A DNA stretch of 64,000 nucleotides from Sedimentisphaerales bacterium (GTDB lineage: Bacteria > Planctomycetota > Phycisphaerae > Sedimentisphaerales > SM23-30). Made by a program: the position numbers and the translations under genes. Below, in pieces: positions 9,547 to 53,575 of this stretch. Under the pieces are notes generated by a model, which saw only the letters and a list, made by a program, of their open reading frames with translations, was not told where the DNA came from and made no database searches. Every line of letters begins with the position of its first letter. The stretch's first letter is position 1. Where the stretch lies: contig JAFGKT010000064.1 of NCBI GenBank assembly GCA_016928435.1, forward strand, positions 2,753 through 66,752, written 5' to 3'.

Positions 9547-10176
9547 AACGCTGTTTTTCCTTTCCAACAGTCACATACGTTTACTCTGCTTTACATTACC
9601 CCGGACGGCCTTAAACTGAAGGACATGAGCAATGAAGTAAGGTGTTTTGGATCAGGCATGTTCATGCTGTGGATTTTTTGCTCAAGTCGGTTCAGCCTTC
9701 TGCATTGGCTATCCAGGGAATATCATCGACTGTTTTTAACAGAATCTTGAGAAAAATAAGATTGGTTGAAAGTGGGGTTTCAGGGTTGATATGGTGGTTT
9801 CTGGGGTGGTTATAGGAACTTAATGTCCGGGCCTGAGGGTGTTTGGATAAGGGGGTTGCGACACCTCCTATATTCTCCATGTTGCCTGTATTGCCAGCGA
9901 TTGAGTCCGATAAGTGTTGGATTTGATGGGATTTGGATTTATTGGTTGGTTTTGTGGTTTTTGCGTTATGCTTATCGGTGGTTGGGACGGTGATGTAGGC
10001 GATTGCGTAGTAAGCTGGGGGCGTCTATAATTGATTGTGATATTTCTAAGGATTTTTACACAATTTGAGTGAAACGCGGGCGAAAAGCTCTGAATAGCGG
10101 CCGATTTTTCCGGTTAGATATCGGATTTCTGGGTCTATTTGGATGTTCCGCTGGTGCTATCAAGAGAGAAAGTTTT

Positions 10177-11187
10177 ATGAGCAAGCGTGACTACTATGAG
10201 GTTTTGGGGGTCAGCCGTGACGCCTCGCCGGAGGAGATCAAGAAGAGCTATAGGAAGTTGGCACGGAAGTATCATCCGGATGTAGCAGGGAAAGATCCCA
10301 AGGCGGCGGCTCAATTCAAGGAAGTTAAGGACGCGTATGATGTGTTGAAGGACAAGAAGTCGCGTGCTTCTTATGATCGGTTCGGCCATGCAGCGGAGCA
10401 TATGGGGGGTTGGTCCGGCGGCGGCGGAGAAGGAGGAGGCGGTTTTGGTGGTCAAGGTTTCGATTTTTCGGATATTTTTGGCGGCATGAGGGGTGGTCGC
10501 GGCGGTCGGCGGAGTAATGTCAAGATTAACCTGGGCGATTTGTTTGGCGGCATGGGCGGCGGTGGTGATGAAGATGAGGTTTTCGAGCGTTTGCGCGCGC
10601 AAGGCGGCGGGGCTCGAAGGCGTGGTGAAGATCTAGAACATAAAGTGCGCATTGGTTTTGAAGAAGCGATTCATGGTTCTACGCGTGATGTGGTTTTGAC
10701 CATGCCTCAAGCGGACGGCAGTCGTAAGCAAGAACATTTGAGTGTTAAGATTCCAGCGGGAGTGGATACCGGGAGCAAGATTCGGGTTCGGGGCAAGGGT
10801 CAGCCGGGTATGGGCGGAGACAATGGTGATTTGATCATCAAGGTTGTGGTAGGTGAGCATCCGTATTTTAGGCGGGACGGAGATCGGATAGATTTGGATG
10901 TTCCGGTGACTTTAGCGGAAGCGACGCTGGGCGCTAAGGTGGACGTTCCGACATTGACGGGGATGACGACGGTTACGATACCGCCTGGCAGCAGCGGCGG
11001 AAGCAAATTGCGGTTGAAGGGCAAAGGTGTGAAAGACAACAAGACGGGCAAGACGGGTGATATGTATTTGACGTTGAAGGTGGTATTACCACGAGATTTG
11101 GATGCTGAGTCGCGGAAGTTGGTGAAGCAATTTACGGATTTGAATCCTCAGCCGGACGTGCGTGATGGTTGGAAGCGTTCACAGTAA
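10177..11187 (+). CDS. DnaJ-class co-chaperone lacking the zinc finger (CbpA-like)
   Basis: J domain with HPD (RKYHPDVAG), Gly-rich linker and two C-terminal beta domains, but no CxxCxGxG repeats. ATG at 10177 gives [12 protein letters not shown]. The last four codons and the stop lie inside repeat copy A. Confidence 0.85.
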
Positions 11188-23112: not shown

Positions 23113-23778
23113 ATGAAGCGTAAGTATTTTGATATTAATGATTTAACGAAGCAAGGGCCGGTTTTGCGCGGTGAAGCGGGGGCGACGGGGGGCAGATTTC
23201 GTTTTGATTTGGGTCGAGCAGGTCTATTGTTGTTGGACATGCAGAGGTATTTTTTGGATCGGGAGGGGCACGCATGGATTCCGAGCGGGGAAGTGATTTT
23301 GCCCGGGTTAGTGCGGTTGGCGGAAGTGTTTGGGCGGGCGGGTCGGCCGGTGGTTTTGACGCGGCATTTGAACAATGAGGCGGACGCGGGGATGATGGGA
23401 TGTTGGTGGCGCGGATTGATTGAGCGAGAGCGGCCGGACAGTGAAGTAGTGGGGCAGTTGGCGGATTACGCGGCTCGCGGGGAGGCGCGATTGCTGGAGA
23501 AGGAACAGTATGACGCGTTTTATGAGACGGATTTGGAGCAGTGGCTGCGGGCGCAGGGTGTGGAGCAGATTGTGATCGGGGGCGTGATGGCGAATTTGTG
23601 TTGTGAGACGACGGCGCGAAGCGGTTTTGTGCGGGGGTTCGAGGTGTTCTTTTTGGTAGATGGCACAGCGGCGTACAATCGGGAATTGCATTTAGCGACA
23701 TTGCGGAATATTGGTTTTGGTTTTGGGGAGTTGGTGACGGTGGCTGAGGTGGCGGCGATGATGGGGGATGATAGATGA
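23113..23778 (+). CDS. Isochorismatase-family (cysteine) hydrolase
   Basis: Catalytic-triad context LLLLDMQ, KEQYDAF, VMANLCCETTARS. Confidence 0.85.
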   Translation: MKRKYFDINDLTKQGPVLRGEAGATGGRFRFDLGRAGLLLLDMQRYFLDREGHAWIPSGEVILPGLVRLAEVFGRAGRPVVLTRHLNNEADAGMMGCWWRGLIERERPDSEVVGQLADYAARGEARLLEKEQYDAFYETDLEQWLRAQGVEQIVIGGVMANLCCETTARSGFVRGFEVFFLVDGTAAYNRELHLATLRNIGFGFGELVTVAEVAAMMGDDR

Positions 23779-24665
23779 TGTGTAAAGATGTGGTGATAGT
23801 AGGCGCGGGAGCCGCGGGCTTGGCGGCTGGCTTGCAGTTAAAGCGGTATGGTCGAGATGTGATGGTGTTGGAGGCGGCGCACATCGGAGGGTTGTTGCAC
23901 AACGCGAACTTGGTGGAGAATTATCTAGGGACAGGCAAGGCGGTTGGTGGGGTGGAACTGGCTGAGCGGATGGCGAGGCAAGCGGATGAGGTTGGGTTGG
24001 AGATACGCGGGGAAGAAGTGTTGGAGGTGAAGTTGGGCGATGATGGTTGGCAGGTGTGCAGCGGGGCGGGGGAATATAAAGCGTCGGCGGTGGTGGTAGC
24101 TTCGGGTACGGTGGCTAAGGGGTTGGAAGGGGTGGTGGTTGAAGATGAGGTTAGCGAATGGGTGCGGTATGAGGTGGTGGAATTAGGGGATGTGAGCGGC
24201 GGTCTGATAGCGATTGTGGGGGCGGGTGACGCGGCGTTTGATTATGCGTTGAACTTGGCGGGGCGGGACAATCGCGTGGTGATTATGAATCGAGGCAGTG
24301 AAGTGCGGGCGTTGAGGTTGTTAGTGGAGAGAGTAGGGGAGGATGAGCGAATTGAATATCGGGAAGGGGCAGCGGTAAAGGCGGTGCGAGTTGGGAAAGC
24401 GAAGCATGTATTGGTGGAGTGGGAGTGCGGTAGCGAAGTGGGCAGGGAAGAATTTGATTATGTTTTGGGTGCGATTGGTCGGGAAGCACGATTGGAATTT
24501 TTGGCAGAACGGTGGCATAGTGCGGGCATAGACGACGAAACGGCGGGTTTGTTTATGGCGGGGGATGTAGTGAATGGGCGTTATCGTCAGGCAGCGATAG
24601 CGGTGGGGGATGGTTTGCGAACAGCGATGAAGGTGCAAGAGTTTTTGCAGGAAAGACGAATATGA
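23775..24665 (+). CDS. NAD(P)/FAD-dependent oxidoreductase (thioredoxin-reductase-like fold, no CxxC)
   Basis: GxGxxG VVIVGAGAAGLAAG and a second dinucleotide motif AIVGAGDAAFDYA. The start overlaps the upstream stop by 4 nt. Confidence 0.8.
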   Translation: MMCKDVVIVGAGAAGLAAGLQLKRYGRDVMVLEAAHIGGLLHNANLVENYLGTGKAVGGVELAERMARQADEVGLEIRGEEVLEVKLGDDGWQVCSGAGEYKASAVVVASGTVAKGLEGVVVEDEVSEWVRYEVVELGDVSGGLIAIVGAGDAAFDYALNLAGRDNRVVIMNRGSEVRALRLLVERVGEDERIEYREGAAVKAVRVGKAKHVLVEWECGSEVGREEFDYVLGAIGREARLEFLAERWHSAGIDDETAGLFMAGDVVNGRYRQAAIAVGDGLRTAMKVQEFLQERRI

Positions 24666-25614: not shown

Positions 25615-26187
25615 TTAATCGTTGTGTTTTTGGCGTAGTCGGTTGCTTAGGCGGAGCATGATTTGGACGCGTTCGGTTTCGTTGAGCCAATCTTGGGTGA
25701 CGGCGGCGATTTCTTCGGCTGGGGGCAGGAACAAACCGGTGGAGCAGGCGCTGCCTAGCTGCTGCTGGGCGAGGGCGCGGTAACGGTTGAGAGTGCGGTC
25801 GCCATACGCGGCGCAGAAGGCGAAGTCTTCAGCGAGGAAAAGGGCGACGGGTACTCGGGTGCCGGCGCAGATTGTTATTTGGTCGCGAAGTTGGGGTGCG
25901 GAATCGCGGTCGATGAATCGGAGGTTAATTTGGGGACAGGCGTTGGCGATTTGGGCGATGATGGGGCCTTGAGCTACGCAGTCGCCGCAACCTAGGGTGC
26001 TGGAGACGAGGATGTTCATTTGGCGTGTGAAGGTATCTAGGAGTTGTTTTTGCTGGTTGGTGAGTTGGACGGCGTTGTAGGATGTGGTCCAGTTTTGTTT
26101 TTGTTGGTCGCTGCCGGTAGCGATGTATTGTTCGTAGGGCAGAGCTTGTTGGAAGAACTGTTCTAGTTGGTCGGTGGTAAGAGGCAT
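25615..26187 (-). CDS. Thioredoxin-like family protein
   Basis: CGDC redox motif in LGCGDCVAQGP; about 190 aa; last gene of the minus-strand operon. Confidence 0.6.
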   Translation of the reverse strand: MPLTTDQLEQFFQQALPYEQYIATGSDQQKQNWTTSYNAVQLTNQQKQLLDTFTRQMNILVSSTLGCGDCVAQGPIIAQIANACPQINLRFIDRDSAPQLRDQITICAGTRVPVALFLAEDFAFCAAYGDRTLNRYRALAQQQLGSACSTGLFLPPAEEIAAVTQDWLNETERVQIMLRLSNRLRQKHND

Positions 26188-26212
26188 AAGATTATCCTGC
26201 TTGGTCTGGCGG

Positions 26213-27358
26213 TTAAGATTGCGCGGGACGGGAGCGGACGAGTTTGAGCATGACGATGATGGTGATGAGGCAGATAACAGCTAGGATGGCAAAAGCGATG
26301 ATAGCGGAATTATGATTTTGTACTTGCCAACCGGTGGTGGAGTTTGGGTTGTAGATATCTAGATTGCCTGCGATGTCGCGAGAGAGATAATAAGTGCGTA
26401 TGTGTTGACGTACGATTAGATTTCCGGCGAGGCTGAGGGCGGTCAGAATGGTGGTGATGGCCAGGGAGAAGCGGCCGGCGGCTTTGAATGCGGCGACGAT
26501 GCCGGTCAGTAGAGCTAGGCCGATCAGAAACAGAGAAGCGTACCAAATTATGGATATGGAATTTGAGGTATGAAGGAGTTGGGATTGCAGGGGCTTCGGT
26601 AAGGTTTGGAGATACCAGATGGTAAAGGCGATTTGCAGAGGGAGGCCAAGGAAGAAGTATTGCAGGCCGATGCGCGTGGCGTGGCGGTTGATGTTAGTTT
26701 GAGTGAGTTGGGAATCAGGGGCGGGTTTGGATCGGCTTAGCCAAGCCCAGGCTAGTCCGCCCAAGGTGATAATGATGGCGAGATTATGCAGCAATCTTGG
26801 GCCTACGATGGGGTCGGGAACGTGCAGGGCGGAGGTGTGGCGATGAAACTCGATCCAGTGTTCCGGTTGGATGGTGAGTACGGAATTATTGGTCATGATG
26901 TAAAGGATGGCGATGAATGCCAGGGGCATGAGCAATGTGCAAATGAAACCGATTAGGCTTTGCTTGAGGCGAGCGAGATAGGTGCTGATGAATCCGATGA
27001 GCAGCAGGGCGAGTACGGCTAGCCAAAACGGGGCGATGAAGATAGAAGCGGTATAGAACCACGGTCCGTACAGGCATTGGGTAAAAAGCAATGGCGCGAC
27101 GCCGAAGTTGATGGCCAAGGAAATACACAACGGCAAGGAACGGAGCGCGCGGCTGTTTATTTGTCGGTCGATTTCGGAGCGATTACGCAGAAGCAAGCAG
27201 CGCAATAGGAGGATGCAAGATATTCCGACAACGGCGCTGACGAAGATTAGGTGAATCCAGAAGGTTATGGTGGAGAGAGTTACCAGCAGCCACGCAGGAG
27301 CGGGCAGAGCGAGATGTTGGTAGGCTGGGATGTGAGGGGCGGCGGCAGCAGCTATCAT
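26213..27358 (-). CDS. Polytopic membrane protein (possible partner subunit of the bd-like oxidoreductase)
   Basis: About 9-10 hydrophobic segments. Its start overlaps the upstream gene stop by 4 nt (27355-27358). No family motif recognised. Confidence 0.6.
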   Translation of the reverse strand: MIAAAAAPHIPAYQHLALPAPAWLLVTLSTITFWIHLIFVSAVVGISCILLLRCLLLRNRSEIDRQINSRALRSLPLCISLAINFGVAPLLFTQCLYGPWFYTASIFIAPFWLAVLALLLIGFISTYLARLKQSLIGFICTLLMPLAFIAILYIMTNNSVLTIQPEHWIEFHRHTSALHVPDPIVGPRLLHNLAIIITLGGLAWAWLSRSKPAPDSQLTQTNINRHATRIGLQYFFLGLPLQIAFTIWYLQTLPKPLQSQLLHTSNSISIIWYASLFLIGLALLTGIVAAFKAAGRFSLAITTILTALSLAGNLIVRQHIRTYYLSRDIAGNLDIYNPNSTTGWQVQNHNSAIIAFAILAVICLITIIVMLKLVRSRPAQS

Positions 27359-28998
27359 GGCAACGGCTCCCAGTTATCTTTTGCGGTGATGGGTAAGAGG
27401 TTGACACGGTTGGCTTGGTCGTCGAGTGTTTCATGGCAGCGTGAGCATTGGCCGTCGAGGGTGTGCATGAAGTAAGCGAGATCGTCACGGTCGTTGGGTG
27501 AGCCGAAGAATGGGGGCATAAAACCGCGGAAGCTTTCGAGGTGTTCGAGCGAACGGGCGAGCATGGTTGGGGTCCAGTTACGGACGAGTGGTTTGATGGC
27601 GTTGTAGCCATCGAAATCGTGGCAGCGGAGGCATTGGGCGTTGTAAATCCATTGGCCGCGGATTGCTTGGCCGGTGCGATGCTGACGAAGCAGGTTGGCG
27701 AATATCAAGGGGTCTTGAGTGTAGAACTCGGCCTCGCTAATGGTGAACTCAGCGAGATGGGCGCCTTGACGATCGAGAGGCAGTTGCGCGACGGTCAGGC
27801 CCAGCTCCAGGGCGATAGCTTGCGGATCGGTGACGATGGGGATGTTTACATCGATGGGGTTTATGGCCCAGGGATGGAATCGCAGTACGGTGTCGTTGGG
27901 GACGGGGCCGGTATAGGGCAGATCGCGGAGTTGGGCGATGGTGGCTTCACGACGTATGGGTTGCTGGGCGGTGAGAGTGTCGCGTATGGCAGGTGCTTGG
28001 GATTTGAGTATGCCGTTGCTGTAAACGTGATTCCAGATGAGGTAAGGTTTGCGCATTCCTTCGCGAACGAATTCGGATGCGCCGGTGGCGATAAATGCCA
28101 AGATTAGCAGCAGCAACGCGGTGCCAAGTGTTACGGAATGTTTGCGGACAATAATGAAGGTGTAGCTATAGAAAGCGATGAGGGTGAAACCTACCAGAGC
28201 GAAGGCGAAGAGCAGTCCCATTACGACGGAGCCGCCGGTAAGATAGGATAACGACAAAGGCGGGCAGCGGAAAAAGTACCATACGGCGGCGGGTATAGCC
28301 AGGACAAGCGGCAGAAGGGCTTTGCCAGCCAGTTGGGTTAGGCGATCACGTTCGGCGGGGGTGTATTTACGGGAAGCGTTGATAAGAACCAAGGCAAAAA
28401 GTGCGCCGAGAGTGAGAGCGCTGATGGTGCGAAGGATAAGCGAAGGCCAATAGGCTGGGTTGAACAATCCGGGCCAGAAAGAGAATGTGAAAGGGGTGGT
28501 GGATGAATCGAAGATGTGGCCAGGGGTTATCATGAAAGTCAATATGCCGTTGATTACCACCAGCGAGAGGAAAGCGGACACGGCGTACACCCAGCCGATG
28601 AAACAATGAGCTCGGGGCGAAATGGTTTTCCAAGTGTAGTAATAGAGATATCCGGAAATGATTTCGACGGTGAACAAGAGCCATTCGAGGGCCCAGGCCC
28701 AGAGGAACAGGTGGATGAGTATGGAGGTGGTTTCGGGACTGACGATAGAGATGGAAAACCAGATGCCTACGCCGGTGACTACACCGCCGATCAGAGGAAG
28801 CAATATGATTAGTTTGCTGTTATCGCGGAGAAATTTTTGGATAGCGGTGTCGTTGTGTCTGAGGGCGTGGGTTTCGGCGATGGCGTTGAACAGTCCGGCC
28901 CCCACAGCGAAGTGCGCTATGAACACATGGACGATGGCGATCGAGGCGATGACCATCGCGCCTCCGAAATAAGGCAGATACCAAATAGGATAATCCAT
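27355..28998 (-). CDS. Cytochrome bd-type (CydA-like) membrane subunit fused to a C-terminal dihaem cytochrome c domain
   Basis: The N-terminus (IAIVHVFIAHFAVGAGLF ... WAWALEWLLFTVE) resembles CydA helices. Two CxxCH motifs: CLRCH (27619-27633) and CSRCH (27433-27447). Confidence 0.7.
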   Translation of the reverse strand: MDYPIWYLPYFGGAMVIASIAIVHVFIAHFAVGAGLFNAIAETHALRHNDTAIQKFLRDNSKLIILLPLIGGVVTGVGIWFSISIVSPETTSILIHLFLWAWALEWLLFTVEIISGYLYYYTWKTISPRAHCFIGWVYAVSAFLSLVVINGILTFMITPGHIFDSSTTPFTFSFWPGLFNPAYWPSLILRTISALTLGALFALVLINASRKYTPAERDRLTQLAGKALLPLVLAIPAAVWYFFRCPPLSLSYLTGGSVVMGLLFAFALVGFTLIAFYSYTFIIVRKHSVTLGTALLLLILAFIATGASEFVREGMRKPYLIWNHVYSNGILKSQAPAIRDTLTAQQPIRREATIAQLRDLPYTGPVPNDTVLRFHPWAINPIDVNIPIVTDPQAIALELGLTVAQLPLDRQGAHLAEFTISEAEFYTQDPLIFANLLRQHRTGQAIRGQWIYNAQCLRCHDFDGYNAIKPLVRNWTPTMLARSLEHLESFRGFMPPFFGSPNDRDDLAYFMHTLDGQCSRCHETLDDQANRVNLLPITAKDNWEPLP

Positions 28999-29300: not shown

Positions 29301-29561
29301 GGTTTAGATTTCTTTAAGGGGACAGGGGTTTGCTGGTCGGCATAATCGATACATTCGTTACATTACTCAAGGTCGGGCAGGTGAGTTCAGGGAAAATGGT
29401 TGAGATTTTTGAAGTCGCGTTGCCGGGAGGGTATTTGAATATTATGTTTAAGGCAGTTAGTGAGGCATTTGAGTTGATTGAGTCATGGTGGGGTGACTTT
29501 GGTTTAGGGCAGGGAGGCCTAGATTTGTCCTATTATTTTGGACAGCGAAGGATCCAGGGTT

Positions 29562-29816
29562 ATGAAAGGCAGACGAAGAAACAGTTTATTTAAGATATTA
29601 TTGGGTTTTATGGCAGGGGTTATTGTCGCGTTGTGTTTGCTGGTGCCGGGCAAGGTTGGACCGACGGTTCTGGTTTGCGGCGATGAACGGGCGCAATGTG
29701 ACCAACTGGATCGCGTAGGGGCACAGATAGAAAGCCTGAGCGATCGGGCAGTGGGATATGTTGGTGACGCCGGCTCTTACGTGCGAGAGCGTATATCGAA
29801 TTGGTCCGGAGAGTAG
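29562..29816 (+). CDS. Hypothetical small membrane-anchored protein
   Basis: MKGRRRNSLFKILLGFMAGVIVALCLL signal-anchor. Followed by its own terminator at 29860-29894. Confidence 0.45.
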   Translation: MKGRRRNSLFKILLGFMAGVIVALCLLVPGKVGPTVLVCGDERAQCDQLDRVGAQIESLSDRAVGYVGDAGSYVRERISNWSGE

Positions 29817-29859
29817 TATTACTCTGGACGATTCGTTGGTAAATATTACACCTTTTTCG

Positions 29860-29894
29860 AGCCCGCTTGTTTTTGGATGAGCGGGCTTTCTTTA
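29860..29894 (+). terminator. Rho-independent terminator
   Basis: Stem AGCCCGCT (29860-29867) / AGCGGGCT (29880-29887) followed by a TTTCTTT run. Confidence 0.6.
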
Positions 29895-30073
29895 TGCGCT
29901 GGTATGGTGGAGTGAGCGGATTTGTTTGGTTGGTGTTTGAGCAGCCTTTAGCTGTGCGAAAGGGTGCCACCCGGAAAGGTGTTTGGGTTTGGGGGGTTGA
30001 CAAAAATAGCCGAAGCGTTTAGATTGGCATTGGTAGCGAGGATATTTAGCAGTTTTTTGCCGACTTGGAGGCT

Positions 30074-30673
30074 ATGATGGATATAAAGAGCCGGGGTGTG
30101 CAAACGCGCGAGGCGATTTTGAAAGTATCAGCCCAGTCGTTCACTATACATGGTTATCGTGACACGAGTCTGAGTGATATTCTAAGTGCGGTGGCGATTA
30201 GCAAGGGGGCTTTTTATCATCACTTCAAAAGCAAGGAAGAAATGGCGCTGGCGGTTCTGGATGAGGTTCGTGATGATTTTGCCTCGATATTTGAGGAGGC
30301 CACCGCGAATTTAGCTTCGTCCGATGAGCATTTGCGGGCTGTGCTGCGTAAGTTAGCGGATTTGCACAATGGTGGGCAATGGACTAAGGGGGTGTTGCTG
30401 GCGCGTCTGGTTCAAGAAACTTCAGCCGAAGAAGGGTTATTAGCGGATCGTGTTCGGGAGGTGGTGGCGTGGTTGTTGGGTGTTTTGGATTCATTGGTGA
30501 AGGCGGCACAAGACGGTGGGAAGGTACGTAATGATTTGCCGAGCGATGCGGCGGCAAGTTTGATATTATCGACTTGGTTCGGCGCCGCGGGGTTGAACGG
30601 ATTGCAGCACGAAGCCTTTTCTTTGGAGGTGGTGTTTGGTGCAATTATGGCCTTGCTGAATATAGATGGATGA
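30074..30673 (+). CDS. TetR/AcrR family transcriptional regulator
   Basis: HTH TSLSDILSAVAISKGAFYHHFKSKEE. A candidate promoter TTGACA-16-TTAGAT lies at 29997-30024. Confidence 0.88.
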   Translation: MMDIKSRGVQTREAILKVSAQSFTIHGYRDTSLSDILSAVAISKGAFYHHFKSKEEMALAVLDEVRDDFASIFEEATANLASSDEHLRAVLRKLADLHNGGQWTKGVLLARLVQETSAEEGLLADRVREVVAWLLGVLDSLVKAAQDGGKVRNDLPSDAAASLILSTWFGAAGLNGLQHEAFSLEVVFGAIMALLNIDG

Positions 30674-31456
30674 TATGGTGAAGTGCAGCAACTGTGAAGA
30701 TGAATCTGTTCGAGCTCGGGATCGAATGGCTGAAGAATTTGTGCGGGCTGGTTTGCGTCCGGGCGGGGTGGCTTTGGTGCATTCGTCTTTGCGATCTTTG
30801 GGGCTGGTACCGGGCGGCGCGGATACGGTTATAGAAGCATTAAGGACGGCTTTGGGCAGTGGGGGCACGTTGTTGATGCCGGCTTTGAGTCATGAATTCG
30901 TCAATTATGAGCAACGGATATTTGATGTTTTGCGCACACCTTCTTGTGTTGGGGCGCTGACGGAGGTTTTTCGCTGCCGGTCAGGGGTGCTGCGTAGTTT
31001 GCATCCAACGCATTCGGTTTGCGGGATTGGTCCGGCAGCGCAAAGAATACTAAGTGAACATCATTTGGATAGCACGCCGTGCGGTGAGCGGTCACCTTTT
31101 AGGCGTTTACGAGATATTGACGGACAGATTGTTTTTATTGGCTGCGGCACGCGCTGTAACACGTCGATGCATGGCGTGGAGGAATTGGTAGAACCGCCTT
31201 ATTGTTTGGCGCGGCAGTTAGTTATACGTTAATAACCAGGGACGGACAAGAAATCGACGTTCGTTGTCGGCGTCATAGTTTTCGGGGTTGGTTGCAACGT
31301 TATGATCGGGTTGTCAAATTATTGAAGGCTGGGGAGTATCACAAAGGCCAAGTGATGAATGCCGAGGTGGAGATAATGGATGCGTCGGCGGTTTGGGAGC
31401 GGGGATTGTCGGCATTGAAGCGTAATGCTTTCGCGTTGGTTGATCCAGTGCGTTAA
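30666..31456 (+). pseudogene. AAC(3)-family aminoglycoside N-acetyltransferase, interrupted by a 1-nt frameshift near 31200-31204
   Basis: Track ORFs 30666..31232 and 31202..31456 carry the N- and C-terminal halves of one AAC(3)-like protein (VALVHSSLRSLG ... GTLLMPALS ... HGVEELVEPPY | LFGAAVSYTL ... QRYDRV). The joint reads CCTTATTGTTTGG. The likely true start is ATG 30726. Confidence 0.7.
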
Positions 31457-40680: not shown

Positions 40681-43266
40681 TTACTTATCGAAGGTGAAGC
40701 TGTGTGCTTGGGCGTCGATTTTTACGGTGTCGCCGTCGGTGTATTGGCCGGCCAGGATTTTTTGGGCGAGGGGGTTTTCCAATTTTTGCTGAATGGTGCG
40801 TTTTAATGGCCGGGCGCCATAGGAGACGTCGTAGCCTTCTTCGAGGAGCATGTCTTTAGCGGCATCGGATATTTGCAGTTGCAGGTGTTTTTGTGCCATT
40901 CGTTTTTGCAGATAGCCCAGTTGTATGTCCACGATTTTGCGCAGTTGTTCTTGGCCGAGCGGATGGAAGACGATGGTTTCGTCCACACGGTTAAGGAACT
41001 CCGGGCGGAAGAATTGTTTGAGTACATCTTTGACATGGGCTTCGATTTCCCAGTCGGCTCCTTTTTCTTCGCGGAGTTTTTGGATTTGGGCGCCGGCGAT
41101 ATTGCTGGTCATGATGATAAGGGTGTTTTTGAAGTCGACGGTTCGGCCGTGGCCGTCGGTCAATCGGCCGTCGTCCAGCACTTGCAGCAAAACATTAAAT
41201 ACATCGCGATGGGCTTTTTCAATTTCGTCGAGTAAGATTACGCTATATGGTTTGCGTCTGATAGCTTCGGTGAGTCGGCCGCCTTCTTCGTAGCCGATGT
41301 ATCCGGGAGGCGCGCCAATCAACCGGGCGACGCTGTGTGGTTCCATGAACTCACTCATGTCGATACGCACCATGGCGTTTTCGTCGTTAAATAAGAATTC
41401 CGCCAGGGCACGGCTGAGTTCGGTTTTGCCTACGCCGGTCGGGCCTAAGAAGATGAAGCTGCCCATCGGTCGATTAGGATCGCCCAGTCCGGCCCGAGCG
41501 CGACGTATAGCATTGCTTACGGCTTGGACGGCTTCTTCTTGGCCGACGACTCGCTTGGATATCTCCGTTTCCATGTGCAGCAGTTTTTCCATTTCACCGG
41601 TGAGTAGTTTGCTAACCGGTATGCCGGTCCATTTAGCGACGACATGGGCGATTTCATCTGGGGTGACTTCTTCTTTGACCAGGCTGTTGCCGTTATGTTG
41701 CTGAGCGGCTTTTTCTTGAGCTTGTTCAAGATTTTTTTGTAACTCCGCGATTGTGCCATAACGCAACCTCGCTGCGGTTTCCAAGTCGCCGCGGCGCTGG
41801 GCTTCTTCTAGTTCGCGTTGAGCTGTGTCAATTTGTTCTTGGATGTTCTTAGCTTCTTTGAGCAGACCGGTTTCGGCTTCCCAACGGGCCGTCAAGGCGT
41901 GGTCCTGTTCTTCCAGGTCAGCTAACTGTTCTTGCAGTTTTGCCAACCTTTGTTTGGATGCTTTGTCAGTTTCTTTTTTGAGTGCTTCGCGTTCGATTTG
42001 CAGTTGCATTATTCGACGGCGCAGCTCATCGAGTTCACTGGGCAGCGAATCGTTTTCGATGCGCAAACGCGAGGCGGCTTCGTCGATGAGGTCGATAGCT
42101 TTGTCAGGCATGAATCGGTCAGCGATATAGCGATTGCTCAGGGTTGCCGCGGCGACCAAGGCGCTGTCGGTGATACGCACACCGTGATGAATGTCGTAGC
42201 GTTGTTTTAATCCGCGTAATATCGCGATGGTGTCTTCGACGGAAGGTTCATCAATAAGAATCGGTTGGAAGCGTCGTTCCAGGGCGGCGTCTTTTTCGAT
42301 GTATTTACGATATTCGTCCAGAGTGGTGGCGCCGATACATCGCAGTTGTCCGCGCGCCAGGGCGGGCTTGAGCAGGTTGCCCGCATCGACGGCGCCTTCG
42401 GCTTTGCCGGTACCGACTACCAAGTGCAGTTCGTCAACAAATAGAATGATCTGGCCATCGGAATCGGTGACTTCTTTAAGCACAGCTTTGAGACGGTCTT
42501 CGAATTCGCCGCGAAACTTTGCGCCCGCAATCAAAGCGCCCATATCCAAACCGATAACCCGTTTGTCTTTTAAGCCCGCGGGCACATCGCCGTTAACAAT
42601 ACGTTGGGCGAGACCTTCGACGATAGCGGTTTTACCTACACCTGGTTCACCGATCAGGACAGGGTTGTTTTTGGTACGCCGGCCTAGCACCTGCATGCAA
42701 CGGCGGATTTCCTCATCGCGACCGATGACCGGGTCGAGTTTGCCTTTGCGGGCTAGTTCGATCAGATCGATGCCGTACTTTTCCAGGGTTTGATATTTGT
42801 TTTCGGGATTGGCATCAGTCACTTTTTGTCCGCCGCGAATTTCCTGCAAAGCCGCGAGTACCTCATTGCGATTGACAGCGTTGACTTCAAGCAGTTCCTT
42901 GGCAGGACTGGGTACTTCCAGCAACGCCAACAGAATATGCTCGGTGCTGAGATATTCATCTTTGAGGGTGTCCGCTTCTTTGTTGGCTTGGATCATTACC
43001 TTCTGCAGGGCTGCGTCGCCGGTCAGTTGGCCTGCCCCGCTGACTTGGGGTAAGCGATCCAATTCGTCTTTGGTCATACTGATAATTTGGTCAACATTAC
43101 AGCCGGTTTTGTTCAGTATGGCGGGGACTATACCGCCTTGGGCGTCTTGGAAAAGTCCAGCCAAGACGTGAAGCGGGGTGAGATTGGCGTGGCCGGAGTT
43201 CGTGGCGATTTCCTGGGCGGTGGCCAAGGCTTGCTGAGCTTTGATTGTCATTTTTTCAAATCGCAT
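40681..43266 (-). CDS. clpB: ATP-dependent chaperone ClpB
   Basis: Clp N-domain, NBD1 GEPGVGKT, long middle coiled coil, NBD2 GPTGVGKT, 861 aa. Confidence 0.97.
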
Positions 43267-43391
43267 AATTTATTCCTTTTATATGCTGCTGTCCGTTAGT
43301 GGTTTAGCTGTCGCCGGTGGTGTTATGCAGTTTGGGCCCTTTCGCGTTGGCTGTAACAGGCAATATATTCCACCATACTCAAAGTCTTGTT

Positions 43392-43407
43392 CGCAAATAC
43401 CGTGCCA
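43392..43407 (-). promoter_or_regulatory. Sigma-54 (-24/-12) promoter candidate for clpB
   Basis: The minus strand reads TGGCACGGTATTTGCG, matching TGGCACG-N4-TTGC with exact GG/GC spacing. It lies about 125 nt upstream of the clpB ATG. Confidence 0.65.
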
Positions 43408-43494
43408 TAAAGCGGATGTTTTGTTTAAGTATTTGTGGTAAAAGGCTTTATATTGCAATGGTTTTTGGAGAAGATTTGACGGAGTTTAAAAGTC

Positions 43495-43597
43495 TGCCAT
43501 TGTGGCATGAAATAGGTCCAGTTTGCGGCTGTGGCAGTTGGACTTTATACAGCCTGTCAGGTTGGCACGGACATCTGCCAACATTGCCACAGTGGCA
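43495..43597. promoter_or_regulatory. Cluster of TGCCA/TGGCA palindromes (candidate enhancer-binding-protein sites)
   Basis: TGCCA-TTG-TGGCA (43495-43507), TTGGCA-N8-TGCCAA (43562-43581), TGCCA-CAG-TGGCA (43585-43597). All lie midway between the two sigma-54 promoter candidates. Confidence 0.45.
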
Positions 43598-43697
43598 GGC
43601 TATCCCTGAGGGCGGATGGGTGAGACGATAATTGTCAATAGCGTAAAATGTTTTACAGCAATAGTTTACGATCTAGTACGAAGGTTTGTAGTTTTTC

Positions 43698-43713
43698 TGG
43701 CATTGTCTTTGCT
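43698..43713 (+). promoter_or_regulatory. Sigma-54 (-24/-12) promoter candidate for groEL-groES-groEL
   Basis: TGGCATTGTCTTTGCT matches TGGCAY-N5-TTGCW with exact spacing. It lies about 115 nt upstream of the groEL ATG. Confidence 0.6.
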
Positions 43714-43804
43714 TTGTGTGACGACATAGAGTCGGAGTCTAGCCTGACTCCGTGGCAAAGAATAAATCGGTAGTGACAATTTGAGTTACTTTTAAATCCG
43801 CTAG

Positions 43805-45526
<1,722 letters not shown>

Positions 45527-45627
45527 TAGTTCTTGCCTTAGCGGCCCCTGAGTAAATACCAACTGTAATATAGTTAAGTAGAAGTTTTTACATAAAACCA
45601 GATTTTTAATCATAGGAGTTTAGAAGT

Positions 45628-45918
45628 ATGAAGGTTAAGCCATTAGATGATAGAGTGTTGGTAAAGCAGTGTGATGCCGAGACTAAAACGGCCGGCGGTA
45701 TTGTTCTGCCTGATTCTGCCCAAGAGAAGCCTCAACGCGGCATCGTGCAACAATGCGGCCCGGGCAAAATGCTCGACAGCGGCGAACGTGGCGGCATGAG
45801 TGTCAAAAGTGGCGACGAAGTCTTCTACGGCAAATATGCCGGTACGGAAGTCCAAATCGATCAAGAGACCTACGTTATTCTGCGGGAAAGCGACATTTTG
45901 GCGATCCTGACCAAGTAA
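45628..45918 (+). CDS. groS: Co-chaperonin GroES
   Basis: MKVKPLDDRVLVK ... GDEVFYGKYAGTEV, 96 aa. Confidence 0.96.
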   Translation: MKVKPLDDRVLVKQCDAETKTAGGIVLPDSAQEKPQRGIVQQCGPGKMLDSGERGGMSVKSGDEVFYGKYAGTEVQIDQETYVILRESDILAILTK

Positions 45919-46036
45919 CGGTTATTATCGCAATTAAAGCAAAAACTCTTAAGCCGGTTTGTCGGCGGGGTACAAGATGTGCTGACGTGAAAACGTGACG
46001 CGGATTTGACCCTCAGAGATAGAATGGAGTTATATA

Positions 46037-47647
46037 ATGGCCAAGCAAATGATGTTTGATGATGCCGCCCGAAAAGAAATTCAGGACGGCCTGATGCGGC
46101 TGGCTTCAGCGGTGAAGGTTACGATGGGGCCGACGGGTCGTAACGTGATCCTGCAGAAAAGTTTCGGTTCGCCCCGTGTCACCAAAGATGGTGTTAGTGT
46201 TTCCAAAGAAATCGAACTGCCCGAGCCTTTTGCCAACATGGGCGCGAAAATGGTGAATCAAGTAGCCAGCAAGACCAGTGATGTGGCCGGTGACGGCACA
46301 ACCACGGCTACGGTTCTTGCCGAAGCGATCTACACCGAAGGGCTCAAATATGTTGCCGCGGGTGTAAATCCCATGTCGCTGCAGCGCGGTATTAACAAAG
46401 CTGTCGCGGTGGCGGTAGAGTCAATCGCCAAGCAGAGCAAAAAGGTTAAAGGCAGCGACGATATCGCCAAGGTCGGTGCTATAAGCGCCAATAACGATCC
46501 GCAGATCGGCAAGCTTTTGGCTGAAGCCATGGACAAAGTCGGCAAGCAGGGCGTTATCGAAGTCGAAGAAGGTAAAGGTATCGAGACTGAACTGGAAGTT
46601 GTCGAAGGTATGCAGTTCGACAAAGGTTTTCTGTCGCCTTACTTTATAACCAAGGCCAGCAGTATGGAAGCCGTTCTGGAAGATTGCTATATTCTCATTC
46701 ACGAGAAGAAGATCAGCAATCTGCGGGAGTTGGTTCCGTTGCTGGAAAAAATCGCCGGCTCCGGCAAGCCGTTGTTGATGATTGCTGAGGATGTTGAAGG
46801 CGAAGCCCTGGCGGCTTTGGTTATCAACAAGCTGCGCGGCGTGCTGCACGTTTGTGCGGTTAAAGCTCCCGGCTTTGGTGATCGTCGCAAAGCCATGCTG
46901 GGTGATATCGCGGCGTTAACCGGCGGGCAAATGATCAGCGAAGATCTGGGCTTGAAACTGGAAAACATCGAAATGTCCCAATTGGGCCAAGCTCGTCGTG
47001 TTGTTATCACCAAAGAGAACACCACGATTGTCGATGGTGCCGGTGCCAAGAAAGATATCAAAGCCCGCATCAATCAAATCGAAAGTCAAATTGAAAAAAC
47101 CACCAGCGATTATGATCGTGAGAAACTACAAGAGCGTCTCGCCAAGTTAACCGGCGGCGTTGCTGTTGTAAGAGCCGGTGCTCCAACCGAAACCGCGATG
47201 AAGGAACGCAAGGATCTGTTGGAAGACGCTCTGCATGCAACCCGGGCCGCGACCGAAGAAGGTGTAGTACCTGGCGGCGGCGTGGCGTTGCTGCGGGCGA
47301 TTAAGACGGTTCAGCAGGCGCAAAAGGATATCGTCAACGACGAGAAATTCGGTTTCGAGATCATCGCCAAAGTACTAAAGGCCCCGGCGCGTCAGATTGT
47401 CGAGAATAGTGGTGCCGACGCGGCCATGGTGATTTCAGAGCTGATGGAGAAAACCGGCTCGGCTGGGTATAATGCCGCCAAGGGTGAGTTTGTTGACATG
47501 CTAGAAGCTGGTATTATCGACCCTGCCAAGGTTACCCGCGCTGCTTTGCAGAACGCCGGCAGCGTCGCTGGGCTTATGTTAACAACCAAGGTTCTGATTA
47601 CCGATCTCAAAGATGATGAAGAACCTGTGCAGGGCGCGATTAGCTAA
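46037..47647 (+). CDS. groL: Chaperonin GroEL (copy 2, acidic tail, no GGM repeats)
   Basis: [34 protein letters not shown]. Ends [14 protein letters not shown]. Confidence 0.97.
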
Positions 47648-47942
47648 CATCTAAGTGGAATGTCCGGATGATATTTTCCGGGTTCTGTTTAGATACTGAT
47701 CGTTGCTTGTTGATGAAGTAATTTGACAGCCGTGGTCACGATGTTGGCTCTGTATGATTGCTCGCAAAATGCTATATGATCTAGAATAGCGTTAGCGGGA
47801 CTAAATCAAACAGGCAAGACATCGTGGCCGACGGTGGTTTTTGTTTCGAGAACAATTCTCGATATGCAAACTGAGGCTATGCGACGGCGCAATTTGCCGT
47901 TTTTGGGTCATTGGCCCATAGCTGTTGTTTTGGATGGGCTTT

Positions 47943-49097
47943 ATGGCAGCAACCAAACGCGACTACTATGAAGTGTTGGGCGTTAAACGCGATTCCAGCC
48001 CGGAAGACATCAAACGCGCCTATCGGCGTTTGGCGATGAAATATCATCCGGATCGCAACCCAGACCAGCCCGAATGTGAGCAGAAGTTCAAAGAATGCGC
48101 TGAAGCCTACGAAGTACTCAGCGACTCGCAAAAACGACAGCAGTATGATCGTTTCGGCCATGAAGGACTGCGCGGCAGCGGAATGCACGACTTCTCGCAT
48201 ATGCGCTCCGATGATATCTTCAGCATGTTCGATGATATCCTGGGTGGTGTTTTTGGCGGTGGTCGTCGGCGCGGTGGTCGATCGGGCAACCGTGCGGCTC
48301 GCGGTTATGATATCGAAACCCAAGTCACCATCAGCATGCAAGAAGTACTCAGCGGCGTAGAAAAGCTGCTGGAGTTCAAGCGACGTGATCTTTGCCCGCA
48401 ATGCAAAGGCAGCGGCGCCGAGCCTGGTCATGATCGTGAACCTTGTGCCCAGTGTGGCGGTCAAGGCCAAGTAGCCCAATCAGGTATGGGCGGACTGTTT
48501 CGTATGGTTACCACTTGTCCGCGTTGTAAAGGCGCAGGCAGTGTAGTAACTCATCCGTGCAAAGCATGTCATGGTCAAGGAATGGTCGAGAAAGAGCGTA
48601 AGCTGACTCTCAAGATTCCCGCCGGCATTAGTGACGGACAAGCAGTTCGGGTTACCGGTGAAGGCGAACCCGGCCAGCACGGCGGTCCATCGGGTGATTT
48701 GTATTGCTATGTTAGAGTGAAGGGGCACGATTTTTTGCATCGCGAAGGCGATGACTTGGTAGTGCGTTTGCCGATAAGTTTCAGCCAAGCGGCATTAGGC
48801 GCTACCGTTGAAGTACCTTCTTTGTCCGGTCGGCGCGAAATAGAAATACATCCGGGTACGCAGCATGGCGCGGTGATCGAAGTCAAAGGCCAAGGTTTAC
48901 CCAATATTCGTAGCGGCCGGCGCGGTTCGCTGCTGGTGCAGGTTTTGATCGAGATTCCTAAGAAGCTCAACAAAGAACAGAAGAAGCTGTTGCGGCAATT
49001 TGCCGAGACCGAAGATAAAACTGTATTGCCGGAAAGCAAAGGGTTTTTTGATAAACTCAAAGATTACTTTGCCGGCGAAAGTCACAATTCCAACTAA
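47943..49097 (+). CDS. dnaJ: Molecular chaperone DnaJ (type I, with zinc finger)
   Basis: J domain HPD (KYHPDRNP), G-rich linker, four CxxCxGxG repeats ([32 protein letters not shown]). Confidence 0.96.
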
Positions 49098-49123
49098 ATG
49101 CTTTACGCTGTAAATGAGTTATT

Positions 49124-49744
49124 ATGAGTAGCAAAAAGGATAAAAAAGCGGGTAAGTCAATTCCGATTGAATCTGCGGAAGAATCTATTGATTCAGCTCA
49201 GCCCACAGAGGGTCAGCCGGAATCGCAATCTCCGGAAGTTGTCGAAGAACCAGCGGCTGAGCCTTCGTTAGAACAACAGTATGAGCAGTTGAAAGCGAGA
49301 TATCAACGCCTGGGTGCCGACTACGCCAACTACCAGAAACGCAGTCAGCGCCAGATTGAACAGGCGTCTCAGTTCGCCCAGGAAAGTGTTGTTCGGGCCA
49401 TTTTGCCGGTTCTGGATAATTTTGATCATACTTTGGTTCAGGGCAGCGAGGATATGAATCCCGCGGCAATTCTGCAAGGGGTCCAAATTGTTTACGATCA
49501 TCTGACCAAGACTCTCAGCGGTTTTGGTATGGAGCGGGTGGCAGTCAAAGTGGGTACTGATTTTGACCCCACCATTCACGAAGCGGTTCTACATGAAGAA
49601 AGCGCTGAATTGGAGCCTAACCAAGTTGTCCGCGAGTTAGCTGCCGGTTACACAATGAACGAACGTACGATTCGTCCAGCCAAAGTTTCCGTTGCCAAGG
49701 CGCCCAGTGAACCGCAGACCGAAGAAGAAACGACGGAAGAATAA
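49124..49744 (+). CDS. grpE: Nucleotide exchange factor GrpE
   Basis: Coiled-coil region followed by the GrpE beta domain (VVRELAAGYTMNERTIRPAKVSV). Follows dnaJ. Confidence 0.9.
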   Translation: MSSKKDKKAGKSIPIESAEESIDSAQPTEGQPESQSPEVVEEPAAEPSLEQQYEQLKARYQRLGADYANYQKRSQRQIEQASQFAQESVVRAILPVLDNFDHTLVQGSEDMNPAAILQGVQIVYDHLTKTLSGFGMERVAVKVGTDFDPTIHEAVLHEESAELEPNQVVRELAAGYTMNERTIRPAKVSVAKAPSEPQTEEETTEE

Positions 49745-51691: not shown

Positions 51692-53575
51692 GTGAAAAAA
51701 CAAGATAGTACCGGGCAATTGGGTTTTGCCTTTGAATCTGAGCAGGAGTCTGTCGCTACCATCGTGAAACCGACCAAGAAGAAGAAAAAGACCACAGCGA
51801 AAAAAACCGCAACCGATAAAGGCAAAACCGATAAACTTGTCTTGCCCAGCAAAACCAAGCCGGCAAAAAAAGAAAAAGAAGATCCGATTATCAAGAAGCG
51901 CAAGCAGAAAGATATAGTTCGGAAAAAAATAGAGCAAATTTCGGAAGACAAGATTGAAGCCCAAGCTCAATTAATGGCTTCCAAGCAGCGTGATATAAGC
52001 GTCAGTGAGTTTTTTGCCAAGAATCGTCATCTCTTAGGTTTTGACAATCCCCGTAAAGCCCTGTTGACCGCGGTCAAAGAAGCGGTGGACAATTCTCTGG
52101 ATGCTTGCGAAGAAGCTCAGATTCTCCCGGTCATTGAAGTGGGTATTACCCAGACTGCTGACGACCGTTTCAGAATATGGATCCAGGATAACGGTCCGGG
52201 TATCGTCAAACAGCAGATTCCTAATATTTTCGGCCGATTGCTTTACGGCAGTAAGTTCCATACCTTGCGTATGGCGCGGGGTCAACAAGGCATAGGCATA
52301 TCCGCGGCCGGCATGTACGGTTTGCTCACCACCGGTAAGAGTGTAAAAATCACCAGCCGGACCGGCCCGCGCAGCCAAGCCCACTATTACGAACTGCAAA
52401 TCAATACCCAAAAGAATCGTCCGGAGATCATCGAAGACCGTGTGACTGACTGGGAGGCTTCCAGCGGCACACGGGTAGAAATTGAAATGGAGGCTCGCTA
52501 CCAGCGCGGTCGACAAAGCGTCGATGAATACCTTGCCCAAACCGCTATCGCCAATCCACATGCGGAATTTCGTTACGTTCAACCCGATGGCCAGGTGTTG
52601 ATCTACGAACGCTCGGTACCGGATGTTGTCGAAGTACCTAAAGCCGTCAAGCCTCATCCTTATGGCGTGGAACTGGGCGTACTAATGAAGATGGCCAAAG
52701 ACACCCCCGAGAAAACCATGACATCGTTTCTTAGCGAAGAGTTTTCGCGGGTTAGTTCCAAGGTTTCCCAAGAGATTCTCGACAAAGCCAAAATCTCCGC
52801 GCGTAAAAACCCATCGACCATAAACCATGCCGAGGCGGAAAAGCTCTATCGGGCTATCAACGACACTAAAATAATGGCGCCTAGTACCCGTTGTGTGGTT
52901 CCCATAGGTGAAGACGCTTTGCTCAAGGGGCTGCAGCAGGTGGTTGAAGCGAGCTTTTACACGGTTTGTACTCGTCCGCCGGCGGTTTATCGCGGTAACC
53001 CTTTCCAGATCGAAGCCGGTTTAGCCTACGGGGGCAAACAACAAAATGATATCGAAGAAGAAGACTTCGAGCTTGGCAAAAACGGCAATGGCAACGGCAA
53101 TGGTAATGGCAATCAAGAACAAATGCGCGTGTTGCGTTTCGCTAATCGCGTGCCGTTGCTTTATCAGCAGTCAGCCTGTGGTATTTTCAAAGCTGTCACC
53201 CAGATGAATTGGCGTTTGTATGGTCTGTCGCAGAGCCGCGGTTCGCTACCGGCAGGTCCCGTTACCGTTATGGTGCATATAGCGTCCGTATGGGTGCCGT
53301 TTACCTCCGAAAGCAAAGAAGCTGTCGCTCATTATCAGGAAATTCTCAAAGAAGTGAAACTCGCTCTGGGTGAATGCGGTCGGCGGTTGGGTACGTACCT
53401 GCGCGGCCAAAAACGCCGGCGCGACGAATCGCTCAAACGCAGCTATATCGAAAAATATCTCCCAGCTATCGGCGAGGCGCTGCGTGATATCCTGTCGCTC
53501 AAAGACCAACAAGTTGACACCATGTTGGAGCATTTGGAGTATGTCTTGGAACACAGCCGCAGCACCAAGATATGA
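51692..53575 (+). CDS. top6B: DNA topoisomerase VI subunit B (GHKL ATPase) with Lys-rich N-terminal extension
   Basis: Bergerat fold: N-box KEAVDNSLDA, G1 QDNGPGI, G2 GQQGIGISAAG. Transducer motif WVPFTSESKEAVA. GTG start at 51692 follows AGGAAGG; an alternative ATG at 51974 would remove the K-rich region. Confidence 0.85.
   Translation: MKKQDSTGQLGFAFESEQESVATIVKPTKKKKKTTAKKTATDKGKTDKLVLPSKTKPAKKEKEDPIIKKRKQKDIVRKKIEQISEDKIEAQAQLMASKQRDISVSEFFAKNRHLLGFDNPRKALLTAVKEAVDNSLDACEEAQILPVIEVGITQTADDRFRIWIQDNGPGIVKQQIPNIFGRLLYGSKFHTLRMARGQQGIGISAAGMYGLLTTGKSVKITSRTGPRSQAHYYELQINTQKNRPEIIEDRVTDWEASSGTRVEIEMEARYQRGRQSVDEYLAQTAIANPHAEFRYVQPDGQVLIYERSVPDVVEVPKAVKPHPYGVELGVLMKMAKDTPEKTMTSFLSEEFSRVSSKVSQEILDKAKISARKNPSTINHAEAEKLYRAINDTKIMAPSTRCVVPIGEDALLKGLQQVVEASFYTVCTRPPAVYRGNPFQIEAGLAYGGKQQNDIEEEDFELGKNGNGNGNGNGNQEQMRVLRFANRVPLLYQQSACGIFKAVTQMNWRLYGLSQSRGSLPAGPVTVMVHIASVWVPFTSESKEAVAHYQEILKEVKLALGECGRRLGTYLRGQKRRRDESLKRSYIEKYLPAIGEALRDILSLKDQQVDTMLEHLEYVLEHSRSTKI

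Follow-up and report, generated by a model that had tools for sequence, protein, structure and literature searches.

We describe a three-gene operon on the minus strand, at positions 25615-28998, of a 64,000-nucleotide (nt) stretch of DNA (the window) from a Sedimentisphaerales metagenome-assembled genome. By its signature residues, subunit architecture and partner gene, the locus is an OR-C1-type operon encoding relatives of the cytochrome bd subunits. The OR-C1 class, which consists of the subunits OR-C1a and OR-C1b, was defined in 2021 by phylogenomics (Murali, Gennis & Hemp 2021, bioRxiv 10.1101/2021.01.16.426971), and the window copy is a further member of this known class and no new system. 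We propose that the OR-C1a/OR-C1b heterodimer is probably a cytochrome-c-fed bd-type O2 reductase, which would serve O2 scavenging, the most likely role, or respiration. Cytochrome bd oxidases attract study both as drug targets and for their high-affinity scavenging of O2, and every characterised enzyme oxidises quinol. The OR-C branch occurs in at least 550 species-level genomes. If our proposal holds, it would be a copper-free oxidase fed by cytochrome c, and cytochrome c would have a third way of passing electrons to O2, in addition to the aa3- and cbb3-type enzymes.

The operon and its parts are listed here with the evidence that identifies each:

27355-28998, minus strand: OR-C1a subunit, 547 amino acids (aa); Pfam PF01654 and PF13442, AlphaFold 2 (AF2) model, Foldseek, hhalign and conservation
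27466-27666, minus strand: cytochrome c domain of OR-C1a, residues 445-511; Pfam Cytochrome_CBB3
27355-27465, minus strand: C-terminal tail of OR-C1a, residues 512-547 and the stop codon; clade-specific CxxCH pattern
26213-27358, minus strand: OR-C1b subunit, 381 aa; hhalign to the OR-C1a family, AF2 model, Foldseek and adjacency
25615-26187, minus strand: Thioredoxin_9-family protein, 190 aa; Pfam PF14595

The three genes and their coordinates, the sizes of the first two and the 4-nt overlap between these are as originally predicted, and are borne out by the list of open reading frames (ORFs) and the sequence. All three are read in the same direction. The OR-C1a and OR-C1b genes share an ATGA at 27355-27358, which combines a TGA stop with an ATG start (CCATGATAGCT), and the Thioredoxin_9 gene starts 25 nt downstream of the end of the OR-C1b gene. 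Proteins identical to the 547-aa and 381-aa products are present in public databases, from a Sedimentisphaerales (Planctomycetota) metagenome-assembled genome, where NCBI/JGI name them "cytochrome ubiquinol oxidase subunit I" and "hypothetical protein", respectively. An NCBIfam scan of the 547-, 381- and 190-aa proteins gave zero matches, including none to a cyd model.

The original prediction described the N-terminal helical region of the 547-aa protein as CydA-like, and Pfam, profile searches against solved structures and the predicted fold all agree on CydA homology. Pfam Cyt_bd_oxida_I (PF01654) matches residues 17-204 (E 2.7e-16) over profile positions 6-194 of 418, which correspond to the first half of CydA only. 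When we compared a family profile of 36 homologues with solved structures, it matched Geobacillus CydA (5DOQ_A, E 1.9e-9) and mycobacterial CydA (E 2e-6). The AF2 model of OR-C1a is confident (predicted local distance difference test (pLDDT) 86; predicted template-modelling score (pTM) 0.83), and the top 10 Foldseek matches to it are all CydA (probability 1.00), followed by 10 CydB structures.

The published reference residues of OR-C1a are H24, E105, E112, S145, H131, Y119, Y121, V77 and W80 (bioRxiv 10.1101/2021.01.16.426971), and the window protein holds all nine at identical numbers. An hhalign comparison with E. coli CydA equates H24 with H19, E105 with E99, E112 with E107 and H131 with H126. 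Counted over 202 OR-C1a homologues, H24 is conserved in 201, E105 in 199, E112 in 195 and H131 in 198; with S145, the equivalent of S140 in the published OR-C1a table, these residues are kept in 183-201 of the 202. All 202 homologues also carry the motif E309-F-V-R312-E313-G-x-R316-K-P-Y at the periplasmic end of helix 8, in which both E313 and R316 are invariant. This stretch, E313-G-M-R316-K-P-Y in the window protein, resembles E445-Y-G-R448-Q-P-W of E. coli CydA, and at the level of the motif E313 may be equivalent to the haem b595 ligand E445.

We also compared the haem b ligands and the Q-loop, as the original prediction had recommended. The H24 and E105 sites are kept, the haem b558 ligand His186 is replaced by R190, which aligns with the b558 histidine of Geobacillus CydA and is an arginine in 202 of 202 homologues, and the Q-loop is gone: the TM6-TM7 loop (TM, transmembrane helix), which forms the long Q-loop in quinol oxidases, is 13 residues long. 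We found no equivalent of Met393, the second b558 ligand, by comparison with the published table and the alignment.

OR-C1a has eight transmembrane helices in both the AF2 model and hydropathy analysis. Its cytoplasmic loops contain 11 lysine or arginine residues and its periplasmic loops none. By the positive-inside rule, this distribution predicts a periplasmic N-terminus and also places everything after residue 312, both CxxCH motifs included, in the periplasm, and not on the cytoplasmic side, the location that the original prediction had named as evidence against itself. The residue-for-residue match to OR-C1a, the missing Q-loop and b558 ligands and the predicted periplasmic location of haem c agree with its suggestion that the locus resembles the cytochrome-c-linked bd branch known from comparative genomics.

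The C-terminal part of OR-C1a contains a single Pfam cytochrome c domain, Cytochrome_CBB3 (PF13442), at residues 445-511 (E 1e-9). Its C456, C459 and H460 are present in 202 of 202 homologues, and an axial Met494, within an FMPPF motif, in 201. The OR-C1a profile also matches cytochromes c6, cy and CcoP in the PDB. By domain match and ligand conservation, we identify residues 445-511 as an ordinary monohaem class-I cytochrome c domain.

The protein had been called a dihaem cytochrome c on the strength of two motifs, CLRCH at 27619-27633 and CSRCH at 27433-27447. Both motifs are real and correspond to residues 456-460 and 518-522, and the second is conserved in 16 relatives; only the first lies within a recognisable cytochrome c domain. 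OR-C1a has six cysteines in total, four of them inside the two motifs, and we estimate from its composition that a chance CxxCH would arise about 0.002 times per protein, which makes a chance origin unlikely. The CSRCH motif sits 7 residues past the cytochrome c domain, 62 residues after the first motif, in a tail of ~35 residues. Across the 202 homologues, 139 have one CxxCH motif, 46 have two, 11 have three, one has four and five have eight. A tail CxxCH 62-69 residues after the first occurs in 16 sequences, all within the 23 closest homologues (at +62 in 14, and at +64 and +69 once each), with the consensus G-x-C-[ST]-x-C-H-x-N-[LIV]-D-D-x-G-N ... D-W-E. On this pattern, the second CxxCH is best described as a clade-specific tail motif and not as a second cytochrome c domain.

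The tail covaries with a histidine in the preceding domain. In the AF2 model, the cytochrome c domain ends with a helix whose last residue is His512. This histidine is present in 16 of 16 tail-bearing sequences and almost never elsewhere, with two of eight close tail-less relatives having it. Such covariation speaks for a functional tail, with His512 as a candidate distal ligand. From these sequence patterns a dihaem state of OR-C1a is plausible, at roughly even odds or better.

The original prediction also held that OR-C1a is not paired with a canonical CydB. The locus indeed has none, and the adjacent 381-aa protein is OR-C1b, which by profile comparison and modelled fold we identify as a divergent CydA paralogue and the partner of OR-C1a. 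Pfam and NCBIfam scans of this protein returned nothing, and a search with the single sequence gave 20 matches only, as the family diverges fast. A profile search extended the family to more than 1,190 members (E <= 1e-10), and in none of them does the membrane part carry a Pfam annotation. Aligned with hhalign, the OR-C1b and OR-C1a families match with a probability of 97.9 % (E 3.3e-13) across 280 columns covering helices 1-8, and in 80 related loci the hidden Markov models of the two families cross-match each other's proteins. The AF2 model of OR-C1b has a pLDDT of 88.6 and a pTM of 0.88, and the first 14 PDB matches found with Foldseek are all cytochrome bd subunits (template-modelling scores 0.46-0.71). 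The OR-C1b profile gave chance-level matches only against the sequences of solved structures.

OR-C1b had been described as a protein of 9-10 transmembrane segments without recognisable motifs. The helix count stands, with nine predicted: eight are common with OR-C1a, and the ninth brings the C-terminus back to the cytoplasm. The absence of motifs does not stand. Counted over 203 sequences, H36 (aligned with H24 of OR-C1a), R188, R317 and R321 are invariant and H191 is near-invariant, and a G86-V-A-P-L-L motif, W112 and Y127 are likewise invariant or nearly so. H191 lies within one position of the expected b558 histidine site in the hhalign alignment. Judged from the conservation of H36 and H191, OR-C1b may itself carry haem. 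In the Bacteroidota, OR-C1b has a cytochrome c domain in place of the ninth helix, which supports a periplasmic location for the region after helix 8. Position 313 of OR-C1b is Met in 188 of the 203 family sequences and Asn in the window protein; if Met313 is a haem ligand, the window copy has lost it.

To place the operon in its wider genomic context, we scanned one genome per species and identified at least 550 relatives. The best 80 of these, from which we took gene neighbourhoods, come from Planctomycetota, Omnitrophota, KSB1, Acidobacteriota, Desulfobacterota, Zixibacteria, Calditrichota and other groups. OR-C1b adjoins OR-C1a in ~76 of the 80 loci and is the sole conserved neighbour. In 11 of the 80 (L011, L024, L026, L041, L042, L048, L051, L062, L072, L076 and L080), from at least six phyla, OR-C1b, a Rieske protein, a cytochrome b and OR-C1a follow each other in this order as overlapping or abutting genes. 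By analogy, this arrangement suggests that the fused haem c would act there as cytochrome c1 in a self-contained quinol-to-O2 chain. We did not find this gene order mentioned in the 2021 paper (bioRxiv 10.1101/2021.01.16.426971), either in its text or in its supplements. The Omnitrophota locus L011 (2540-9443) contains the four-gene version with a plain pair of OR-C1a and OR-C1b directly after it, and L022 (7001-10729) has two tandem OR-C1a genes followed by one OR-C1b.

A different neighbourhood is found in three larger genomes whose OR-C1 enzymes are 46-47 % identical and have the tail motif. Directly upstream of the OR-C1a/b genes and on the same strand, these genomes encode one or two rubrerythrins and a flavodiiron protein (Lactamase_B, ODP and Flavodoxin_1 domains; L083 1419-4797, L084 3082-5730 and L085 3977-5721), the classic equipment of anaerobes for defence against O2 and peroxide. 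These two contexts bear on the enzyme in different ways and leave its classification unchanged: the rubrerythrin and flavodiiron neighbourhoods suggest a role, and the Rieske/cytochrome b operons suggest an upstream electron donor.

We propose that electrons would enter OR-C1a on its periplasmic side, by way of the haem c that would be bound covalently in its C-terminal domain; this domain would functionally stand in for the quinol site, the Q-loop and haem b558. In the tail-bearing clade, a second haem on the C-terminal tail would probably also participate. From haem c, electrons would pass to a bd-type di-haem site that H24, E105 and E313 would ligate, near the periplasmic face of helices 1-4 and 8. 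O2 would be reduced to water at this site, with protons supplied from the cytoplasm through a channel formed by E105, E112, H131 and S145. Drawing protons from the cytoplasm would make OR-C1 turnover electrogenic. OR-C1b would take the structural place of CydB, and its H36 and H191 suggest that it may bind a haem of its own. In a probably anaerobic Sedimentisphaerales host, high-affinity O2 scavenging would be the most likely role.

Several points weigh against this proposal. We found no purified or assayed OR-C enzyme in the papers that we searched, so that O2 reduction is extrapolated from conserved residues, and the later papers that we found use OR-C as a phylogenetic label only. The residue table for OR-C1a lists no equivalent of E445 (Murali, Gennis & Hemp 2021, bioRxiv 10.1101/2021.01.16.426971), and the stretch that equates E313 with E445, a second domain in our HMMER comparison with solved structures, is not significant alone. 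The OR-C1b family has no significant hhalign similarity to E. coli CydA or CydB (E 0.11 and 0.26, respectively), and the link of this subunit to the bd family is thus transitive, through OR-C1a, plus the fold. The OR-C1a tail with its putative second haem site is modelled with low confidence (pLDDT 40-71). The rubrerythrin and flavodiiron neighbourhood occurs in only three genomes, which are probably interrelated. The 64 kb of the window contain no genes for a cytochrome c, a Rieske/cytochrome b complex or alternative complex III (ACIII). The Sedimentisphaerales are described as largely fermentative anaerobes; this description, together with the corrinoid reductive activase and B12-dependent radical-SAM genes in the window, indicates that the host is probably anaerobic.

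We considered whether the substrate of the bd-type di-haem site is instead another small oxidant (H2O2, NO or nitrite, for example), or whether the site serves chiefly in peroxidase-type detoxification. Canonical bd oxidases have peroxidase and catalase side activities, and the rubrerythrins (peroxide reductases) and flavodiiron proteins (O2/NO reductases) encoded in the sister genomes would fit a general oxidative and nitrosative defence. The conserved bd site has also been described as "adapted to multiple functions" (Murali et al., bioRxiv 10.1101/2021.01.16.426971). We nevertheless regard this alternative as unlikely: the whole set of residues for O2 reduction and proton conduction is kept at 96-100 %, no sequence feature indicates another substrate, and the window contains no genes for N-oxide metabolism.

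A second alternative is that OR-C1a and OR-C1b form a transmembrane redox conduit, carrying electrons in either direction between periplasmic cytochromes and a cytoplasmic partner, possibly the Thioredoxin_9 protein. The invariant His36 of OR-C1b at the CydA ligand site, its near-invariant His191 near the b558 site and its common Met313 could belong to such a path. With up to 8 CxxCH motifs, the Desulfobacterota versions resemble other electron-transfer modules that face the periplasm, and in the window clade a cytoplasmic CxxC protein is encoded directly after OR-C1b. Against a conduit, the conserved ligands all lie near the periplasmic face and none near the cytoplasmic face, the Thioredoxin_9 gene is linked in only 4 of ~86 loci, the window OR-C1b has Asn at position 313, and a conserved glutamate proton channel would make no sense in a pure electron wire. 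We give this model little credence. A related idea, to which we assign a similarly small chance, is that OR-C1b is a second haem-bearing subunit that forms, with the tail CxxCH/His512 pair and the Thioredoxin_9 protein, a multi-haem machine whose partner is neither soluble cytochrome c nor O2; it might, for example, link periplasmic haems to cytoplasmic thiol redox chemistry in a fermentative anaerobe without a conventional respiratory chain. Finally, the NCBI/JGI names and the Pfam CydA match might imply that the locus encodes a cytochrome bd that oxidises quinol in the ordinary way and has a cytochrome c domain as an extra. This is very unlikely: the Pfam match does not extend beyond profile position 194 of 418, the short TM6-TM7 loop leaves no Q-loop, an invariant Arg stands in place of His186, and a Met393 equivalent, a canonical CydB and an NCBIfam cyd match are all lacking.

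The window enzyme shares with the published OR-C1 class an eight-helix CydA core with equivalents of H19, E99, E107 and H126, the lack of a Q-loop and b558 ligands, a C-terminal periplasmic CxxCH and an adjacent paralogous OR-C1b gene. It also differs from the published description in several respects. The main hosts reported for OR-C1 are Acidobacteria, Desulfobacterota and Campylobacterota, whereas the window copy comes from the Sedimentisphaerales (Planctomycetota). Its OR-C1a has a short tail with a CxxCH motif paired with His512 and an extra insert of ~50 residues in the linker, its OR-C1b has a ninth helix, and a Thioredoxin_9 gene follows the operon pair. We also found an invariant E-x-x-R-x-P-Y that resembles the E445/R448 motif, a motif listed as absent in the 2021 paper.

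Canonical CydAB (E. coli bd-I, 6RKO; Geobacillus, 5DOQ) shares with OR-C1 both subunit folds, the N-out topology, an E-x-G-R-x-P-W-like motif, the TM1 His ligand, two TM3 glutamates and the TM4 His/Ser proton-channel residues. In contrast to CydAB, OR-C1 has no quinol site, Q-loop, b558 ligands or ninth CydA helix, and its point of electron entry would be the fused haem c. Instead of the haem-free CydB, its partner subunit is a CydA-like paralogue in which a TM1 His is conserved. We saw no CydX or CydS gene at the window locus. Archaeal CydAA' (qOR4a/qOR4b) and OR-N are, like OR-C1, heterodimers of two CydA paralogues in which the "b" or A' subunit has lost the channel glutamates and kept the TM1 His. 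CydAA' differs from OR-C1 in oxidising quinol through a Q-loop, and OR-N in having no fused haem c and 10-14 helices; these pairs arose by independent duplications (bioRxiv 10.1101/2021.01.16.426971). CcoP of the cbb3 oxidases and the cytochrome c1/cy-type domains of bc-oxidase supercomplexes resemble OR-C1 in that a membrane-anchored class-I cytochrome c feeds a terminal oxidase from the periplasm. The catalytic subunit of OR-C1 is bd-type, with no copper and no haem-copper fold, and the likeness is functional only and concerns a domain of ~70 residues.

The window locus offers a compact example of OR-C1 from a probably anaerobic Planctomycete, and its tail-bearing clade adds a tail haem motif, the His512 covariation and a thioredoxin neighbour to a widespread family. 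For experiments, it provides handles in the E313/R316 motif and R190, in the tail CxxCH/His512 pair, and in the gene contexts that point to role and donor.

The third gene encodes a thioredoxin-like protein with a CGDC motif, as originally predicted. Pfam Thioredoxin_9 (PF14595) matches the 190-aa protein with an E-value of 3.7e-18 (66.1 bits against a cut-off of 25), and the motif lies at residues 67-70. We found no signal peptide, transmembrane segment or hydrophobic segment in the protein, which is thus predicted to be cytoplasmic. Among solved structures, the nearest to it is the uncharacterised PA1234 (1Z6N), with a match that is not significant (E 0.22). Of ~86 loci, only L001, L002 and L082, and L086, a second assembly of the window organism, have the gene after OR-C1b. 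On this distribution, the protein is probably a lineage-specific accessory and not a conserved part of OR-C1, possibly linked with thiol-based oxidative-stress defence. The lack of a signal peptide or membrane anchor led us to reject a role in cytochrome c maturation like that of ResA or CcmG.

Convergent with the Thioredoxin_9 gene is a plus-strand gene (23775-24665) for a 296-aa thioredoxin-reductase-like flavoprotein (Pyr_redox_2/3), whose operon mates encode an isochorismatase and a weakly RlmN/Cfr-like radical-SAM protein, in an arrangement not conserved in relatives. We rejected this TrxB-like flavoprotein as a partner of the Thioredoxin_9 protein: inspection of its translation revealed no CxxC active site, and it is not conserved nearby in L001, L002 and L082.

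Upstream of OR-C1a, two small overlapping plus-strand ORFs of 87 and 92 aa, the second with a hydrophobic segment, lie between OR-C1a and a TetR gene (30065-30673). They are followed by a terminator-like hairpin with a 13-bp stem at 29859-29888, and the ORFs and hairpin fall within 29330-29888. With these elements in between, the oxidase operon and the TetR gene do not form a directly divergent pair. A promoter-like TTGACA-17-TAGATT site lies at 29997-30025. Upstream of OR-C1a, we found no inverted repeats that could serve as an operator for the nearby TetR protein, and promoter-like sites were no commoner than in shuffled sequence. Beyond the TetR gene, an aminoglycoside 3-N-acetyltransferase-family gene (30666-31456, plus strand) appears to be split into overlapping ORFs at 30666-31232 and 31202-31456, the first of which matches profile positions 1-160 of 232 only; the split is probably a frameshift or an assembly error.

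The wider surroundings of the operon in the window include genes for radical-SAM enzymes, an isochorismatase, transporters, a sigma-54 two-component pair, flagellin, a corrinoid reductive activase and a heat-shock cluster. The heat-shock cluster (40681-49744) encodes ClpB on the minus strand, tandem GroEL paralogues (43829-45526 and 46037-47647), DnaJ and GrpE, and a second DnaJ-like gene lies at 10069-11187. A plus-strand gene at 51692-53575 combines a topoisomerase VI B-subunit transducer domain with a GHKL ATPase domain, which is uncommon in bacteria.

The window also has an extremely strong compositional asymmetry between its strands. Plus-strand GC skew is 0.3-0.47 over the first ~36 kb, apart from about 0.16 in two 2-kb windows, and the skew at third codon positions is 0.47-0.78 in all genes up to ~35 kb on either strand, except for 0.33 at 10069-11187. 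After crossing zero at ~44-55 kb, the skew is down to -0.45 by 60 kb. This pattern looks like a replication-linked mutational bias far above that of typical bacteria, with a polarity switch, at an origin or a terminus, within the window.

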